This document shows, piece after piece, positions 5,883 to 36,271 of a stretch of DNA of 64,000 nt. Every line of letters starts with the position of its first letter. The first letter of the stretch is position 1. Source of the DNA: Candidatus Woesearchaeota archaeon (lineage in GTDB: Archaea; Nanobdellota; Nanobdellia; UBA10117; GCA-020343615). The notes beneath the pieces were generated by a model. The model searched no databases and had not been told where the DNA came from. It saw nothing but the letters and a program-made list of their open reading frames with translations. Location: NCBI GenBank assembly GCA_020343615.1, contig CP070803.1:855273-919272 (forward strand), given 5' to 3'. Both the position numbers and the translations under genes were made by a program.

Positions 5883-6623
5883 TTAAAAAATTTTAGAAGT
5901 TTCAGTATTTAGATTATTATATAAATTAAAAATAATACTTTTTCGTTCTTTAAGATTTGATCTTGGAAGTCCTTTTCCTATTTTTTTCCAAATGTCTATT
6001 TTAGAAGTATGTTTCGGATTGTTAAATCCTATCTCTTTAATCCATCGATTTATGTCTTCTTTTTTGTATAATACGAGTGAATAGACTGGATTTAAATCTC
6101 GTTTACCTTTGTATGGTTTTTTAAAATATGGTCTAAATCCTAATTTTTCAGATATTTGTTTTATCTGAAATATAAGATTTTTTGAAGTACTACTAATTTT
6201 TATTCTTGGTTGCGTGTGTTTACCGGAAGTACTTTTATTGAAGTAAACTGTACCATCTGTATCAAATATTCCTCGCAATACATTTCTAATTAAAGATTCT
6301 GTCATAAGTCTTTCTGGTATTTCTATATTCGTTTTCTTACCGGGTTTCAAACCAATATTTCTTAAGTAATCTACAACTGCTTTATTAAATATTTTAAATC
6401 CGTAGACTCCATTTTTTGAATAATCTCTTCCACTTAATTTATAATCCAATAAAGGTTTTCCAATAGTTTTGTTAAACAAAGGAATTACTGTTTTATCATA
6501 GTACTCTCTTTCTTCTATTGAATCTCCACATACTGAAAGTTCACTATATCTTTTGTTTACGCTAATGCAACCATCTCCAATACATATTCCTATAAACTCT
6601 GCCAAATCTTTGGTTAGTTCCAT
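5883..6623 (-). CDS. LAGLIDADG homing endonuclease (double-motif, free-standing)
   Basis: 246 aa with two LAGLIDADG-type motifs (FIGICIGDGCIS and LRGIFDTDGTVYF). The ATG lies 6 nt after the tRNA-Leu 3' end on the same strand. Confidence 0.85.
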   Translation of the reverse strand: MELTKDLAEFIGICIGDGCISVNKRYSELSVCGDSIEEREYYDKTVIPLFNKTIGKPLLDYKLSGRDYSKNGVYGFKIFNKAVVDYLRNIGLKPGKKTNIEIPERLMTESLIRNVLRGIFDTDGTVYFNKSTSGKHTQPRIKISSTSKNLIFQIKQISEKLGFRPYFKKPYKGKRDLNPVYSLVLYKKEDINRWIKEIGFNNPKHTSKIDIWKKIGKGLPRSNLKERKSIIFNLYNNLNTETSKIF

Positions 6624-9620: not shown

Positions 9621-10103
9621 ATGAAAATAAATTATAATAGTATAGGTAAAATTCCGCCTGTGCATGAAGGAAAATTAAGAGAAGATCACGTAAGACCTAC
9701 AGGTAGATATGTTGATGGGACTCTGGTTCTTAAACTATATCATATGGCAGCAAATATGCCTAAGAAAAGAGACTTAAACTGTAAGGGTAGGGAATTACAA
9801 TCTCTTATATTAGATAAGCGACATAAAGGTGAAATAGAAAGTTACAGCGGTATGGGTTTTGCTGTATCTACTGAGAATATCAGCGACATACTTGTATGGA
9901 ATGGTAAAGATCTTTGGTTAAAAATATATTCTAATAATGTTTATAAAGGTAATCGTGAAATAACTCGTGAAAAATCTCCAATTACAGATATATCTGAAAT
10001 AGAAATATATTTTTTTGAAAAAAAGGCTTGGAATCAATATCTTAACTCGAGCAGGACGATTAAAGATAAAAAGGCATATCTTAGTGAAATTTTCAAAAAG
10101 TAA
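9621..10103 (+). CDS. hypothetical protein
   Basis: 160 aa ORF directly following the signal peptidase gene. No recognisable motif. Confidence 0.35.
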   Translation: MKINYNSIGKIPPVHEGKLREDHVRPTGRYVDGTLVLKLYHMAANMPKKRDLNCKGRELQSLILDKRHKGEIESYSGMGFAVSTENISDILVWNGKDLWLKIYSNNVYKGNREITREKSPITDISEIEIYFFEKKAWNQYLNSSRTIKDKKAYLSEIFKK

Positions 10104-11618: not shown

Positions 11619-11714
11619 CCCGGCTTAGCTCAACTTGGCAGAGCGTGCGGCTGTAGATTGCTTATCAGCGTAGCTGAAACCGCAAGGTTCCTGGTTCGAT
11701 TCCGGGAGCCGGGA
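11619..11714 (+). tRNA. tRNA-Tyr (anticodon GUA) with 22-nt intron (11657-11678, position 37/38)
   Basis: C1-G72 pair and A73 as in archaeal tRNA-Tyr, GCTC/GAGC D stem, TGCGG..CCGCA anticodon stem, loop CTGTAG|intron|A, CCTGG-TTCGATT-CCGGG T arm. Confidence 0.85.
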
Positions 11715-11744
11715 CTCTAATTTTCAATAGAGGGGGAGCCTGTT

Positions 11745-18758: not shown

Positions 18759-18832
18759 GCCTTGGTAGTGTAGTTGGTTTATCATATGAGCCTGTCGAGC
18801 TCATGACCCGGGTTCAAATCCCGGCCAAGGCG
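18759..18832 (+). tRNA. tRNA-Asp (anticodon GUC)
   Basis: GCCTTGG/CCAAGGC acceptor, TGAGC-CTGTCGA-GCTCA anticodon arm, CCGGG-TTCAAAT-CCCGG T arm, G73. Confidence 0.9.
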
Positions 18833-18844
18833 CTTTTGATTAAA

Positions 18845-19087
18845 ATGGGTAAGGGTTTAGATTTGCAAAAACATGACTTAGTTCCTCTTCACAAAAAATT
18901 AACACCTGAAGAAGCGAAAAATTTTTTAAAAGAATACAATGTTTCTCCTCAACAACTTCCAAAACTTTTTTCAGGTGATCCCATAGCTAAACAAATGGGC
19001 TTTAAGGCTGGCGACATAGTGAAGATTGAAAGAGAAAGCAAAACTGGAAAAAATGTCTATTATAGACTTGTAATTAATCATGCGTAA
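18845..19087 (+). CDS. rpoH: DNA-directed RNA polymerase subunit H (Rpo5)
   Basis: MGKGLDLQKHDLVPLHKKLTPEEAKNFLKEYNV...GD.VKI.R.S.T......YR.V pattern. The track ORF start inside tRNA-Asp is rejected. Confidence 0.85.
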   Translation: MGKGLDLQKHDLVPLHKKLTPEEAKNFLKEYNVSPQQLPKLFSGDPIAKQMGFKAGDIVKIERESKTGKNVYYRLVINHA

Positions 19088-20573
19088 AGGGAAAATATTA
19101 TTGGATGACTATTTCAAGAGAAATAGTTTAGTCGAAGCTGATATAAATTCTTTTAATGAATTTGTAGACTGGAGATTGCAAAAATTAGTTGATGAGTTAG
19201 GCTCCCCAACTCCAGCAGTAGTTCCTGCAGAAACTGAAGAAGTTAAAATTGAATTCGGAAAAATCCGAATTGGTAAACCTTCGGTAATCGAAGCTGATGG
19301 TGTAAGAAGATTGATACTTCCTTCTGAAGCAAGATTGAGAAAATTGACATATGCTGCCCCACTATACTTAGAGATAGGTTTAGTTATAGATGGAATAGAA
19401 AGGGAAAGAAGAGAAGTAAGAATCGGAGAAGCACCAGTTATGATAAAGTCTAAGATCTGTCCTCTAAGCAAAATGAGCAGAGAGGAGCTTATTGATGTGG
19501 GAGAAGATCCTTATGATACTGGCGGATACTTTATAATTAATGGAACTGAAAGAGTAATAATTTTCCTAGAAGACTTAGCACCTAATACTTTATTCGTAGA
19601 AAAGAGCATGGGTGCTTCTACACATTCAGCAAAGATTTTTTCAGAAAGAGGGTTATACAGAATTCCTCATACTGTAGAAATTAAAAAAGATGGAATGATA
19701 CTCGTGTCCTTTACATCTCTACACAAGGTACCTATTTTTGTATTGATGAGGGCATTAGGTCTTAAAAGCGATGCAGATATAATCAAAGCGATCAATTCAG
19801 ATCACGGTGAAGAAGAAATATTCTTGAACTTATATGAATTCTTAGAGATAAAAAACGAAAATGATGCTAAACAATTTATTGCAAGAACTATGGGTCTTGG
19901 TTCCCAACCAGATGAAAGAAAAATAGAGAGGATTAATTATCTAATAGACAGCTTCCTATTCCCGCATATTGGAGGCAGTGAAAAGGATAGGATAAAGAAA
20001 GCTTACTTCTTGGGAAACATGGTTCGTAAGTTGCTCTTGCTGAAGCATGGCGAAATCGAAGAAGATGATAAAGACCATTATATGAACAAAAGAATAAGAT
20101 TATCCGGTGACTTGCTTGAGGATCTTTACAGAAAAAGTCTAAAAAGTTTTGTTAAGGATATGCTTTATGTTTTCCAAAGAGGAGTTAGAAGAGGGAAGAT
20201 ATTACCTATAAGTTCTATTGCTACAACTCGCGTAGTCACTTCTAGAATAAGGAGAAGCATGGCTACTGGAAGCTGGTCTTCTGGTAGAGAAGGTATTAGT
20301 CAGAGACTAGACAGAGAAAATGCTCTTTCATCTCTATCACACTTAGGAAGAATCGTATCTCCTCTGCCTGCTTCTCAGGAGAATTTTAAGGCGAGAGAAT
20401 TACATCCTACTCATTGGGGAAGATTGTGCCCAGTAGAATCTCCAGAAGGAAAAAATATTGGCTTAAGAAAAAATATATCTTTAATTGCGGGAAACACACC
20501 TGAAATAAAGGAAGAAGAACTAAAAAAGAATCTAAAAGTTATAAAAGAACTTGGACTTGAGGAAATTGGTTAA
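19080..20573 (+). CDS. rpoB2: DNA-directed RNA polymerase subunit B'' (Rpo2N)
   Basis: 497 aa. N-terminal half of the B/Rpb2 homolog (..GYFIINGTERVI.., ..HP.HWGR.CP.E.PEG.NIGL.KN..). Confidence 0.9.
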   Translation: MRKGKILLDDYFKRNSLVEADINSFNEFVDWRLQKLVDELGSPTPAVVPAETEEVKIEFGKIRIGKPSVIEADGVRRLILPSEARLRKLTYAAPLYLEIGLVIDGIERERREVRIGEAPVMIKSKICPLSKMSREELIDVGEDPYDTGGYFIINGTERVIIFLEDLAPNTLFVEKSMGASTHSAKIFSERGLYRIPHTVEIKKDGMILVSFTSLHKVPIFVLMRALGLKSDADIIKAINSDHGEEEIFLNLYEFLEIKNENDAKQFIARTMGLGSQPDERKIERINYLIDSFLFPHIGGSEKDRIKKAYFLGNMVRKLLLLKHGEIEEDDKDHYMNKRIRLSGDLLEDLYRKSLKSFVKDMLYVFQRGVRRGKILPISSIATTRVVTSRIRRSMATGSWSSGREGISQRLDRENALSSLSHLGRIVSPLPASQENFKARELHPTHWGRLCPVESPEGKNIGLRKNISLIAGNTPEIKEEELKKNLKVIKELGLEEIG

Positions 20574-20574
20574 A

Positions 20575-22374
20575 ATGACTGATGTATTCTTAAACGGGAC
20601 ATTAATAGGAACCGTGAAGAACGGTGAGGAATTTGCTAGAAATTTAAAAGAAAAAAGAAGAGATGGTAGTTTATCAAAATACCTCAACGTACATGTAGAT
20701 GAAGCTCTAAATACTGTTAATATATTTCTAGATAAAAATAGAGTAATAAGGCCTTTAATAAGAGTAGAGAACGGAAAGTCTCTATTAACTGAAGAGCATC
20801 TCGAACAAGTAGAAAGAGAAGAACTAACGTGGGAAGACTTAGTGAATCAAAATATTGTAGAATACCTTGATCCTTCTGAAGAAGAAAATGCGTATATTGC
20901 TCTTGATGAAAAAGATTTGAGTAAAGAACATACTCATTTGGAAATAGACCCTGTTGGTATTTTTTCAATATGTACTTCTCTAGTTCCTTATGCCAACTTT
21001 AACATGAGTTCAAGATTAAATAGAGGTCAAAAAACTCAAAAACAGGCTATGGGAGTTTATGCTCTTAACTTCTTAACCAGACTTGATACTAGTGTAAATA
21101 TTTTACACTATCCTCAGAGACCTCTTGTTAGAAGTTATACTGAAAAATTACTAGGAGAAGGTAAGTTAGCTGGCCAGAATATAGTCATAGCAGTAACAAA
21201 TTATGAGGGATACAACATGTCAGATGCCATTGTCCTCAATAAATCATCTATAGAAAGAGGTTTTGGATTATCTACTTATTATAGACCATATGAAGCTACT
21301 AAGTCTAAATACCCTGGAGGTCAGACTGATAGAATATGCATTCCTGACAAAGAAGTTAGAGGTTATGGTATAGAAGAAGAATATCGTTACCTTGAAGAAG
21401 ATGGAATAATCTATCCTGAAGTTGCAGTTAAAGATGAAGAAGTATTAGTAGGTAGAACTTCTCCACCTAGATTCTTAGGAAAACTAAGAACCTTTGGTAA
21501 TGCTACTTCAACAACAAATGATACTTCTGTAAGAATAAGAAGTGGTGAAGATGGAATCGTTTCTAAAGTAATCGTAACTGAAAATGAAGAGGGAGATAGA
21601 ATAATAACTGTTAAAATAAGGGATACGAGAAAGCCTGAAATTGGAGACAAGTTCGCATCAAGACACGGACAGAAAGGAGTCGTAGGAAGAATTGTGTCTA
21701 GAGAAGACTTACCTTTCACTGCTTCTGGAATTGTTCCTGATGTTGTTTTCTCACCTAATAGTCTTCCTAAAAGAATGACTTTAGGACACATTATTGAAAT
21801 ACTTGCTGTCAAGGTAGGAGCATTAAATGGAAGGTAAATTAATGGTACTAGTTTTGATTCTGAAAATGTTGATGACTTAAGAAACGAATTGCTTTCTCTA
21901 GGTTTTAGGGAAGATGGAAGCGAGACTATGTACGATGGAAGGACTGGTGAAGAATTTGAAGCAAGAATTTTCATAGGTAACATGTACTATTTAAGATTAA
22001 AACACCAGGTTAGTGATAAAATACAAGCTAGATCAAGAGGTCCTGTTCAATTATTAACAAGACAGCCAACAGCTGGAAAGGCTAAACAGGGTGGTCTAAG
22101 ATTCGGAGAGATGGAAAAAGAAGCGTTAATTGCTCATGGTTCATCTATGTTGATGAAGGAGCGGTTCAGTTCTGATAGAGCCGAATTTTATGTATGCAAT
22201 AAATGCAAGAATTTAGCTATATTTGATGAATTTGATAACAGAGCTAAATGCGATATTTGTGGAGAGAAGACGAATATATCTAAGATAGAGCTAGCTTATG
22301 CTTTTAAGCTCTTACTAGATGAATTGAAAAGCTGTGGGATAAACCCAAAGTTAATATTAAAGGATAAATTCTAA
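20575..22374 (+). CDS. rpoB1: DNA-directed RNA polymerase subunit B' (Rpo2C), frame interrupted by one in-frame TAA at 21835-21837
   Basis: Track ORFs 20551..21837 and 21889..22374 share a frame. Conserved blocks (GDKFASRHGQKG, ARSRGPVQLLTRQP, GGLRFGEME, C-terminal Zn ribbon) run straight across the stop. Confidence 0.85.
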
Positions 22375-22375
22375 A

Positions 22376-26276
<3,901 letters not shown>

Positions 26277-34345: not shown

Positions 34346-36271
34346 CTAGAAAAATATACTGATAATTCCTACTGGCTCTGCATCAATATCTCTAATAAGT
34401 TCCATAACAAGTGTGAATTTCTTACTCCTGCCTTGTTTATCTTTTAGAACTACTTTTTTTACTAGCGGTGTTCTGCTAAGAGCTGTTTCTTTAATCCACT
34501 TCTTTAAGTTCTCTCTTTCTTTCTCATCAGCCATAAGCTCTTCGATACCTTTTGGTGCATTTTCTTCCTCGTTAAAGAAGTCAGCTAACTTATATCCTAA
34601 CTCTGAGGTAACTTGATTGTTTAAAGATGAAATATTTCCTTCTTCATCAGTCAGAATCACTAGAGCATTAGCATTAAGCTCTACTGGTGCTTCTTTAATT
34701 ACTGGTTTTTCTTCCTTAATTTCTGGTAATTCTTTTGGTACTTCTTTAGGTAATTCCTCTGGTTCTTCTTTTGGTACTCCCTTGGGTTCTTCTTTATGCT
34801 GTTTTTTTAATTCTTCTATTTCCTTTGATTTTTCTTTCGTTGCTTTTTCGTGTTCTTTTTTTAAGCCTTCTATTTCACTTACTTTCTCTTTTGTTACTCT
34901 TTCAGTTTGTTTTTTAAATTCATCTATAGCCTTTGATTTTTCAGCTACTAATTTCTTTAAACTCTCAATCTCATAAACTTTATCTTTTAGAGAATATCGT
35001 AGGTCTTCTATTGTTTCTTCAGATTCACTTAAGTCTTTTCTATGGGAAATATCTCTCAGTATTAAAATCAAAGAAGGTTTTTTATTATATAGAACCTTGG
35101 TCATTCTAACTTCTAGATACAGTTTTTTCCTATTCTTGGTTCTTGCTTCTAATTCAAAATCAGACCTTTCTTCTTCACTACTTAATTGTTTTTTGAGTAA
35201 TTTCTGGGATGTCTTTATTAGTACTTTATATACATCTTTTAATTCATCTTTACTATAGCCGAGCATATTATAAAAATAATCATTTGCAAATACTACTTTC
35301 TTTGATTGAAATATTAATACACCTACAGGTGTATTTTGGGATAAAAACTGGTATTTTCTCTTAAAGTTATCAATTAATTCTTCGTATTTATATTTATAAT
35401 TTTCAGCTTCTTCTTTTTCTTTTTTAATTCGTAGAAGTAACTGCTTTAGAGCCTTATCATCAAGTTTTAGGTTAGAACCATGTTTTTTTGTATAATCTTT
35501 ATAATCTTCTTCAAGTCCCTTAAATTCTTCTCTTATTTTATTTATATTCTCTTCTTTTTCTTTTAACTTAGCTGTTGTTTTTTTGTATTTTTCTCTTAAT
35601 TCATCTAACTTTATGGAAGTTTCATGAAATTTTTCCTTGTAAGAATATAGATCATTATCAGTGATTTTCAAGTTATCTGATCTCTCCTTAAGTTCGTCTT
35701 TTATTTTATTGTAATCGTCTTTTATTGCATTCAATTCAGTAGAAACTTTAGCATACTTTTCTTTGAGTAGATCCAATGTGTTTTTTATGACTTTTAATTT
35801 CTCTACTTTCGCTTTAAAATTATCTTTTAACTTTTCGTGTTCTTCTTCTATTTTATTTAATCTCAGAGAAGATCCTTCATATTTCAGAGTAGTTTCTTCT
35901 AATGCTTTTTCAGTGGAATCTAGATTCTTTGACTTTTCTTTGAGTTCTTCCTCTGTTTTTTTGTTTTTCTCTTTGAGTTCCTTCAGATTTGAACTTGACT
36001 CTTCGTATTTTTGCTTATAGGAATCAAGTTCTTCTTCAACTTTGTTTAATCTTTCGTAGGCTTTATCTCTAACTATTTTTGTCCTTCTATTAATAACCTC
36101 TAACTCTTTTTCTAGAATGGATAATTGTTTACGCTCTTCACTTATCTCTATTTGATTATTAATAGCCTCTTCTAGAAATTCAGAAATATGCTGATTATTT
36201 ATCTTAGCTGCTTCTATCGCTGCTTTATAAACTCGGGGGTTTATTATTACATCAGAATCTTTATCCCTCAT
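34346..36271 (-). CDS. large coiled-coil protein with PAS-like domains
   Basis: 641 aa. Long E/K heptad region plus two PAS-like segments (..VVFANDYFYNMLGYSKDEL.. and ..ISSLNNQVTSELGYKLADF..). Confidence 0.5.
   Translation of the reverse strand: MRDKDSDVIINPRVYKAAIEAAKINNQHISEFLEEAINNQIEISEERKQLSILEKELEVINRRTKIVRDKAYERLNKVEEELDSYKQKYEESSSNLKELKEKNKKTEEELKEKSKNLDSTEKALEETTLKYEGSSLRLNKIEEEHEKLKDNFKAKVEKLKVIKNTLDLLKEKYAKVSTELNAIKDDYNKIKDELKERSDNLKITDNDLYSYKEKFHETSIKLDELREKYKKTTAKLKEKEENINKIREEFKGLEEDYKDYTKKHGSNLKLDDKALKQLLLRIKKEKEEAENYKYKYEELIDNFKRKYQFLSQNTPVGVLIFQSKKVVFANDYFYNMLGYSKDELKDVYKVLIKTSQKLLKKQLSSEEERSDFELEARTKNRKKLYLEVRMTKVLYNKKPSLILILRDISHRKDLSESEETIEDLRYSLKDKVYEIESLKKLVAEKSKAIDEFKKQTERVTKEKVSEIEGLKKEHEKATKEKSKEIEELKKQHKEEPKGVPKEEPEELPKEVPKELPEIKEEKPVIKEAPVELNANALVILTDEEGNISSLNNQVTSELGYKLADFFNEEENAPKGIEELMADEKERENLKKWIKETALSRTPLVKKVVLKDKQGRSKKFTLVMELIRDIDAEPVGIISIFF

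Follow-up and report, generated by a model that had tools for sequence, protein, structure and literature searches.

The analysed window, a 64-kb stretch of archaeal DNA, has a G+C content of 32.6%, is approximately 95% coding and carries about 79 gene-length open reading frames (ORFs). Its proteins group with those of DPANN archaea (Woesearchaeales-like), the matches being labelled Nanoarchaeota, Woesearchaeota or Nanobdellati. An archaeal RNA polymerase (RNAP) operon occupies positions 18803-26033 in the order rpoH, rpoB'', rpoB', rpoA' and rpoA'', and on its 3' side come an L30e/L7Ae-family ribosomal protein gene, the gene for NusA, one unnamed gene and a family-B DNA polymerase gene. The rpoB''/rpoB' and rpoB'/rpoA' junctions both read TAAAATG. 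Within this operon, rpoB' and rpoA' each contain one in-frame TAA codon, and the genes flanking this pair are intact (Table 1).

Table 1. Coordinates of the RNAP genes and of the features associated with their internal stops (positions in the window)
Feature	Position	Strand	Remarks
rpoB''	19080..20573	+	Intact, 497 aa; 5' neighbour in the RNAP operon; NCBIfam NF007175 end-to-end match
rpoB' (RNA polymerase subunit B')	20575..22374	+	599 codons including the internal TAA; NCBIfam TIGR03670
In-frame TAA, rpoB' codon 421	21835..21837	+	Aligned with Tyr (TAT in L068, TAC in L070)
17 sense codons (INGTSFDSENVDDLRNE) from the B' stop to the next possible in-frame start, TTG 21889	21838..21888	+	Conserved block continues
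rpoA' (RNA polymerase subunit A')	22376..24913	+	845 codons including the internal TAA; NCBIfam TIGR02390/NF006336 on both sides of the stop
In-frame TAA, rpoA' codon 654	24335..24337	+	Aligned with Lys (AAA in L069)
rpoA''	24888..26033	+	Intact, 381 aa; 3' neighbour in the RNAP operon; NCBIfam TIGR02389, profile 6-366 of 367

Anatomy of the two internal TAA codons

An earlier note on this DNA had proposed that the ORFs 20551..21837 and 21889..22374 are one rpoB' gene with a single TAA inside it. Translation of 20551-22374 in one frame indeed gave a complete B' subunit interrupted once, by a TAA (21835-21837) that lies in the context gca tta aat gga agg TAA att aat ggt (21820-21850, in the frame of 20551/20575). 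The archaeal RpoB profile TIGR03670 was matched at positions 1-418 on the 5' side of the stop and at positions 420-598 on its 3' side, and as the gap in the match spans one profile position, this TAA stands for exactly one residue. The invariant ARSRGPVQLLTRQP and GGLRFGEME blocks were both found downstream of the stop, as had been claimed. Alignment to solved archaeal and Pol II structures placed the break inside the conserved segment KVGALNGR/INGTSF and not in a linker; the corresponding segments, with the residue at the stop in square brackets, read ...LKGR[R]VDGTAF in the Thermococcus RNAP structure and ...LSGN[I]VDATPF in that of Sulfolobus, which bears out the suggestion that a conserved B' block continues across the stop.

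The second stop, reported 2.5 kb downstream in rpoA', was also recovered. Profile matches were obtained on both sides of it, covering positions 2-670 before the TAA (24335-24337) and 674-859 after it, and this codon likewise substitutes exactly one residue. Since the frame continues straight after each stop with exactly one residue missing, RNA editing, ribosome hopping and frameshifting were rejected. A-to-I editing of UAA would yield Trp, which is absent from both alignment columns (120 homologs each), and this form of editing was rejected as well. A six-frame scan of the window for long open segments flanking one stop returned rpoB' and rpoA' as the only single-stop-split genes. Three further candidates from same-frame pairs were discarded: 9621-10103/10155-11585 are separate genes (an orphan ORF and a 476-aa gene, the homolog of which in a relative aligns from its own ATG), 55699-56229/55084-55638 are also separate genes (a kinase-like gene and porC), and 34617-35258 is a frame inside a 641-aa PAS-domain gene.

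No restart signal was identified after either stop. As the earlier note had stated for rpoB', neither ATG, GTG nor TTG occurs in frame for 17 codons after the stop, the next in-frame start being TTG 21889; after the rpoA' stop, the same holds for 22 codons. The first in-frame start codons following both stops are TTG, both lie within conserved blocks, and an SD-like motif is absent before either of them. A single ATG occurs near the B' stop, in another frame, and the codon directly 3' of this stop is ATT; the codons after the A' stop are TTC AGA GAA, with nothing start-like among them. ATG is the start codon of nearly all clear genes of the window, and an SD-like motif precedes 8 of 64.

A hairpin starts 10 nt 3' of the B' stop (z = -2.65); it is not maintained in the relatives L068 or L070, and nothing comparable was found 3' of the A' stop (z = -0.8). 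The only Rfam matches in the window were four ordinary tRNAs (Thr-GGU, Tyr-GUA, Asp-GUC and Ser-CGA), so that the 64-kb window yielded no recoding element and, among its four tRNAs, no suppressor. With the two internal TAAs removed, the genes of the window are terminated by TAA in 43 cases, TAG in 20 and TGA in 14 (n = 77). The resulting TAA share (56%) matches that of the relatives, back-up stops after TAA-terminated genes show no excess over theirs, and an internal TAA affects 2 of 79 genes. On these grounds TAA reassignment was rejected, in agreement with the earlier argument against a global change of meaning.

Comparison with relatives

The best protein match to the rpoB' product (P0001) is intact, 599 aa long and 92% identical, and the best match to the rpoA' product (P0121) is intact, 845 aa long and 91% identical. 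The nearest relatives are a Logan contig (SRR21285571), a JGI contig (3300027917) and a 78%-identical lineage in the ERR62907xx runs; their genes are intact, of equal lengths (599 and 845 aa) and in equal order, the arrangement rpoH-B''-B'-A'-A''-L30e-NusA-...-polB being common to the window and its relatives. The closest independent DNA belongs to other species, with 88% identity in rpoB' and 83% in rpoA'. At the B' site the relatives carry TAT (L068) or TAC (L070) and at the A' site AAA (L069). Each TAA lies one transversion away from these sense codons.

Alignment of rpoB' orthologs, which had been suggested as a check, revealed that the TAA is not conserved and that the aligned residue is Tyr in 75 of 120 homologs. 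The rpoA' column is more mixed, with Lys in 29, Gln in 26, Asp in 18 and Glu in 15 of 120 homologs. The survey was extended by tblastn to 153 fetched DPANN loci from genomes and metagenomes, of which approximately 135 covered rpoB' and 106 covered rpoA', and a stop at either column was found in none of them. Nor is any of the 240 best homologous proteins that reach the sites interrupted at either one; in the relatives, B' is unbroken at 598-604 aa and A' at approximately 840-860 aa. Neither TAA is conserved, and the amino acid replaced differs between the sites, being Tyr at one and Lys at the other, which would be expected of independent point changes rather than of one decoding rule.

A second sequence of the same species was searched for in several collections. 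An exact look-up of four window proteins in the protein database gave no match, the best identity was 60% in the GTDB representative genomes and 54% among the matches listed for metagenome contigs, and the exact pattern spanning the stop was absent from viral contigs. The homology searches returned no fragment-length proteins near-identical to B' or A' (peak identities of 92% and 91%).

Sporadic single in-frame stops do occur at other positions of DPANN RNAP genes. They were found in the rpoB' genes of two loci (TAA in L052, TAG in L132) and in the rpoA' gene of a third (TAA in L149), and amount to approximately 0.7% of the RNAP genes in the surveyed public DPANN assemblies. The stops described here resemble them in that each is a lone nonsense codon, one step from the homologous sense codon, at a non-conserved position of an otherwise intact gene; however, the sporadic cases come one per locus, whereas here two lie in adjacent genes with 64 kb of clean-looking sequence around them, and two such stops in one locus were seen in none of approximately 150 other DPANN loci. 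An all-against-all locus scan yielded five credible in-frame stop events, all in RNAP genes; its use for stops outside the RNAP genes was abandoned because the output was swamped by conserved antisense frames and natural in-frame junctions. One further locus (L087) carries a frameshift in an RNAP gene.

Sequence quality, clustering and selection

Outside the two stops, the window looks clean. The other approximately 75 genes look intact, no frameshift was seen in 64 kb, and 30 further proteins span Pfam domains essentially end to end, among them a P-type ATPase, PolB, an S-layer protein, RadA, FEN1, TruD and pyruvate:ferredoxin oxidoreductase subunits. The long genes had been described as uninterrupted, and those of 907, 903, 816 and 641 aa are so. 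A generally error-prone assembly is therefore unlikely. For two random stop-creating substitutions in the coding DNA of the window, the probability that both fall within rpoB' and rpoA' is P = 0.005; that both should be TAA is unremarkable (P = 0.25). This clustering fits a local cause, and a real biological link fits equally well.

Both changes are A:T to T:A transversions. For nanopore-only complete Nanobdellota genomes, a preprint gives approximately 5.9 split or truncated genes per genome, a figure that it treats as an upper bound on assembly error (10.64898/2026.05.13.725050). The published nanopore substitution bias is A-to-G and G-to-A, not A/T (10.64898/2026.01.14.699587); long reads typically err by indels or A/G transitions, whereas the changes here are A/T transversions. 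A systematic motif-linked error was considered and rejected: 144 TATTAA and 11 TATTAAKG sites have not been converted, and the relative L070 has the same TATTAA/AATTAA ratio. Nine residues 5' of the B' stop, the subunit carries a rare substitution, G412V (G in 113 of 120 homologs), and in a sliding DNA plot identity to L068 falls mildly near the stop, to 0.83-0.85 vs approximately 0.89. A mosaic or breakpoint at this position was not adopted, the plot against L068 showing no more than this mild dip and no clear junction.

Purifying selection is evident on both sides of the stops. Compared with the closest relatives, dN/dS is 0.10 on the 5' side and 0.02 on the 3' side of the rpoB' stop, and 0.05 and 0.04, respectively, for rpoA'; the values as a whole span 0.02-0.13, with values of 0.02-0.06 downstream of the stops that are as low as those upstream. 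None of 326 near-invariant residues (138 in B' and 188 in A') is altered, and rare substitutions are no more numerous in B' and A' of the window than in the relatives. From the stop-creating mutational target of the codons downstream of the stops, we estimated how long the genes may have evolved neutrally before another stop would probably have appeared. The age of the stops is thereby bounded at 0.048 substitutions per site with neutrality confined to the downstream parts and at 0.0125 with the whole genes dead, as compared with a dS of 0.45-1.1 to the nearest relative. Taken together, the low dN/dS, the retained invariant residues and the short neutral limit indicate that the stops are extremely recent, not real, or translated through. 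An old pseudogene was accordingly rejected, the genes also being free of further stops and frameshifts.

Origin and significance of the stops

The earlier note had offered four explanations, namely readthrough or recoding, a split subunit with re-initiation, a fresh pseudogene and a wrong consensus base, and had disfavoured sequence error. The clustering argument on which it drew is valid (P = 0.005), but the comparison with relatives makes a wrong base or a fresh allele the leading reading. We propose that the two TAAs are probably non-programmed single-base changes, arising either as consensus errors or from a rare, very recent defective haplotype, and that they do not represent the genes that the population expresses. 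Codon 421 of rpoB' would have changed from TAT to TAA and codon 654 of rpoA' from AAA to TAA, two isolated events in an RNAP operon that would otherwise be fully functional. We infer that the bases are either erroneous in the consensus or unfixed, in which case the assembly may have caught a rare fresh haplotype. A consensus or polishing artefact is plausible because both stops lie at variable codons inside conserved, read-recruiting genes: RNAP genes may be so conserved that reads of related strains map to them, and a consensus called base by base at a strain-variable codon could then produce a chimeric TAA; the variable columns of both stops have conserved sequence on either side. The products of the working genes would be a normal B' of 599 aa with Tyr421 and a normal A' of 845 aa with Lys654, both full-length, and no recoding, reassignment or subunit splitting would be involved. 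Of the fresh-pseudogene option, the part that implies long decay is excluded, and a very fresh allele is retained within this leading reading.

A different possibility, which we regard as unlikely but credible, is a pair of genuine, fixed stops in a lineage that partly suppresses UAA, so that full-length subunits would still be made. The suppressor might possibly be a tRNA with a UUA anticodon encoded outside the window, or there may be unusually high near-cognate readthrough by tRNA-Tyr, tRNA-Lys or tRNA-Gln; with such a suppressor, nonsense codons at tolerant positions would be only mildly harmful and can accumulate. The same stop codon occurs twice, in essential genes under strong purifying selection on either side of it, at variable columns where Tyr, Lys or Gln would be acceptable, and in an assembly that otherwise looks clean. 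Two hits in adjacent RNAP genes are improbable as random errors, and this P value is what keeps a real, suppressed stop under consideration. Tyr and Lys codons, from which TAA is one base away, belong to the families that yield ochre suppressors, as in classical ochre mutations; in E. coli, these suppressors are derived from tRNA-Tyr, tRNA-Lys and tRNA-Gln. Here, however, none of the window's four tRNAs is a suppressor, and the stop usage of the window bears no signature of suppression, TAA ending 56% of the genes while being neither avoided nor enriched for back-up stops relative to the relatives. Only 2 of 79 genes are affected, the genes of 907, 903, 816 and 641 aa being spared, and relatives whose DNA is 88% identical lack the stops. 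Where termination has been measured, TAA-A and TAA-T, the contexts of the two stops, terminate efficiently, and neither is known to be leaky. Our search of the literature found no precedent for in-frame stops in DPANN RNAP, for archaeal UAA readthrough or suppression, or for DPANN suppressor tRNAs. A programmed version of readthrough, in which UAA readthrough or recoding would set RNAP levels or the codon would be decoded in a context-dependent manner as a specific amino acid, is in our view barely credible. The affected genes do encode the two largest subunits of a single enzyme, with 2.5 kb between the stops, and the B' stop is followed by the stable hairpin described above; but they are missing even from the closest relatives, they align with different ancestral residues, no common structure or Rfam element accompanies them, and TAA is the main terminator. 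The resemblance to selenocysteine UGA, pyrrolysine UAG, viral leaky stops and codon reassignments is limited to an in-frame stop within a conserved coding sequence that is evidently needed, whereas the stop here is UAA, has no cis element, sits at an unconserved position, lacks a dedicated tRNA in the window and is the commonest terminator. In this programmed form, readthrough or recoding from the earlier list is not supported.

The re-initiation option fares little better, and it is very unlikely that four polypeptides are made (B' 1-420 and 422-599, A' 1-653 and 655-845), with the C-terminal pieces arising by termination-reinitiation at a non-canonical codon. Such an arrangement would extend the natural B''/B' and A'/A'' splits. 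RNAP large subunits tolerate splitting, as illustrated by these two divisions in the present operon and by cyanobacterial gamma/beta', and by a rough extrapolation from NCBIfam gamma-subunit matches the A' stop lies a few tens of residues from the homologous position of the cyanobacterial split. The TAAAATG-coupled genes of the operon suggest efficient reinitiation, and an ATT immediately follows the B' stop. The natural splits (archaeal B''/B' and A'/A'', cyanobacterial and plastid gamma/beta') likewise consist of separately terminated frames in one operon, but there the downstream frame has its own ATG at the upstream stop and the split is conserved in the clade, whereas the present stops are unique, fall inside conserved blocks and have no start to use. 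The 17 and 22 codons without ATG, GTG or TTG encode conserved residues, the lone ATG near the B' stop is out of frame, the downstream TTGs lack an SD-like motif, the A' stop is followed by nothing start-like, the B' break is not in a linker, and no relative is divided at either site. It is also distinctly improbable, if less so than the four-polypeptide arrangement, that the operon copy has only just been inactivated, either because a second intact rpoB'/rpoA' pair exists elsewhere or because the contig derives from a non-viable cell or relic DNA. A second disabling hit would be expected once the first had removed selection, and a preprint notes RpoA 'paralogs' in subsets of Nanobdellota as well as multi-copy RpoA calls (10.64898/2026.05.13.725050). 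Against this stand the selection data given above, with dN/dS of 0.02-0.13, no near-invariant residue lost, no frameshifts or further stops and a neutral period of less than 0.0125 substitutions per site, together with a gene order shared with the relatives, by which the operon looks like the primary copy. DPANN genomes of approximately 1 Mb normally carry one rpoB'/rpoA' copy.

What follows differs between these readings. If the UAAs were genuine and fixed, with full-length RNAP made by means of an ochre-suppressing tRNA or leaky UAA termination, for which we see a small but real chance, this would be the first natural example of archaeal essential genes maintained through UAA suppression. 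An essential enzyme would then rely on readthrough of the codon that is also the main terminator, which could be early stop-codon ambiguity in a reduced symbiont genome. Such a case would indicate natural ochre suppression or ambiguous termination in DPANN and offer a tractable entry into how the meaning of a stop begins to shift. If the stops are instead an artefact or a stray allele, as under the consensus-error or fresh-haplotype reading that we favour, they are mainly a quality flag: both genes should be annotated as full-length with a sequence note, and not as split genes, paralogs or pseudogenes, since misannotated RNAP subunits distort marker-gene sets and the phylogenies built on them.

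As a curiosity only, a T-to-A change just 5' of ATTAA would describe either substitution.

Sequence surroundings of the two in-frame stops

Taking the nearest relatives as reference, both stop-creating changes, in rpoB' and in rpoA', were found to be a T to A substitution directly 5' of ATTAA (see table below). A systematic T to A conversion at this motif was considered and rejected, because 144 TATTAA and 11 TATTAAKG sites stay unaltered within the window.

The region surrounding the rpoB' stop was compared with L068, the nearest rpoB' relative, and DNA identity was found to fall locally to 0.83–0.85. Across rpoB' (20575–22374), the proportion of synonymous differences from L068 was 0.57 downstream of the stop and 0.34 upstream of it; rate heterogeneity or an earlier recombination tract may account for this inequality. 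Nine residues 5' of the stop, rpoB' also carries the rare change G412V, at a codon that encodes Gly in 113/120 homologs. A stable hairpin (-22.1 kcal/mol, z = -2.65) starts 10 nt 3' of the rpoB' stop; this fold was not conserved in either relative compared, L068 or the 78%-identical lineage L070, and no comparable fold was found downstream of the rpoA' stop.

Coordinates of the features discussed (window positions, or locus:position for other DPANN loci)
Feature	Gene	Position	Strand	Detail
Stop-creating change	rpoB'	21837	+	GGTA[A]ATTAATGG
Stop-creating change	rpoA'	24335	-	GAATT[A]ATTAAGG
G412V	rpoB'	21808–21810		codon 412
Hairpin	rpoB'	21845–21933		
Junction	rpoB''/rpoB'	20571–20577		TAAAATG
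Junction	rpoB'/rpoA'	22372–22378		TAAAATG
tRNA-Tyr (GUA)		11619–11715		97 nt
LAGLIDADG_3 homing-endonuclease-like domain ORF		5883–6623	-	246 aa
Orphan ORF		9621–10103		160 aa, between two conserved hypothetical genes
In-frame stop	rpoB'	L052:11111		TAA
In-frame stop	rpoB'	L132:1026		TAG
In-frame stop	rpoA'	L149:2929		TAA
Frameshift	rpoB'	L087:1844–1850		
Insertion	rpoA'	L117:13136–14562		~1.4 kb, after residue ~450; metagenome contig Ga0071330_1063896
Smaller break	A', N-terminal part	L153:12304–12608		
Smaller break	A', N-terminal part	L092:12186–12470		

Translation starts and the tRNA-Tyr gene

Both tabulated operon junctions share a layout in which the stop codon is followed by a single base and then ATG, and an SD-like motif was present at only 8 of the 64 clear gene starts in the window. 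Together these observations suggest that the operon genes are coupled by termination-reinitiation and that initiation is mostly SD-independent. Among the tRNAs of the window, only tRNA-Tyr (GUA) is near-cognate to UAA; its anticodon is normal, and the length of its gene implies that an intron is present.

RNA polymerase genes in other DPANN loci

Isolated in-frame stops were also observed in RNA polymerase genes of other DPANN assemblies, at positions differing from those in the window. The loci L052, L132, L149 and L087, the last with a frameshift, carry one such defect each. In L117, homology of rpoA' picks up again beyond the insertion, which looks intein-like. Smaller breaks were located in L153 and L092.

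Other open reading frames in the window

The LAGLIDADG_3 ORF is free-standing: no gene that would host it within an intron or intein is evident around it. The orphan ORF showed no family match, and L070 lacks an equivalent of it in its syntenic region. It is in frame with the next gene, one TAA and 17 codons lying between them; the possibility that the two form one interrupted gene was rejected, since the homolog of the next gene begins at its own ATG.
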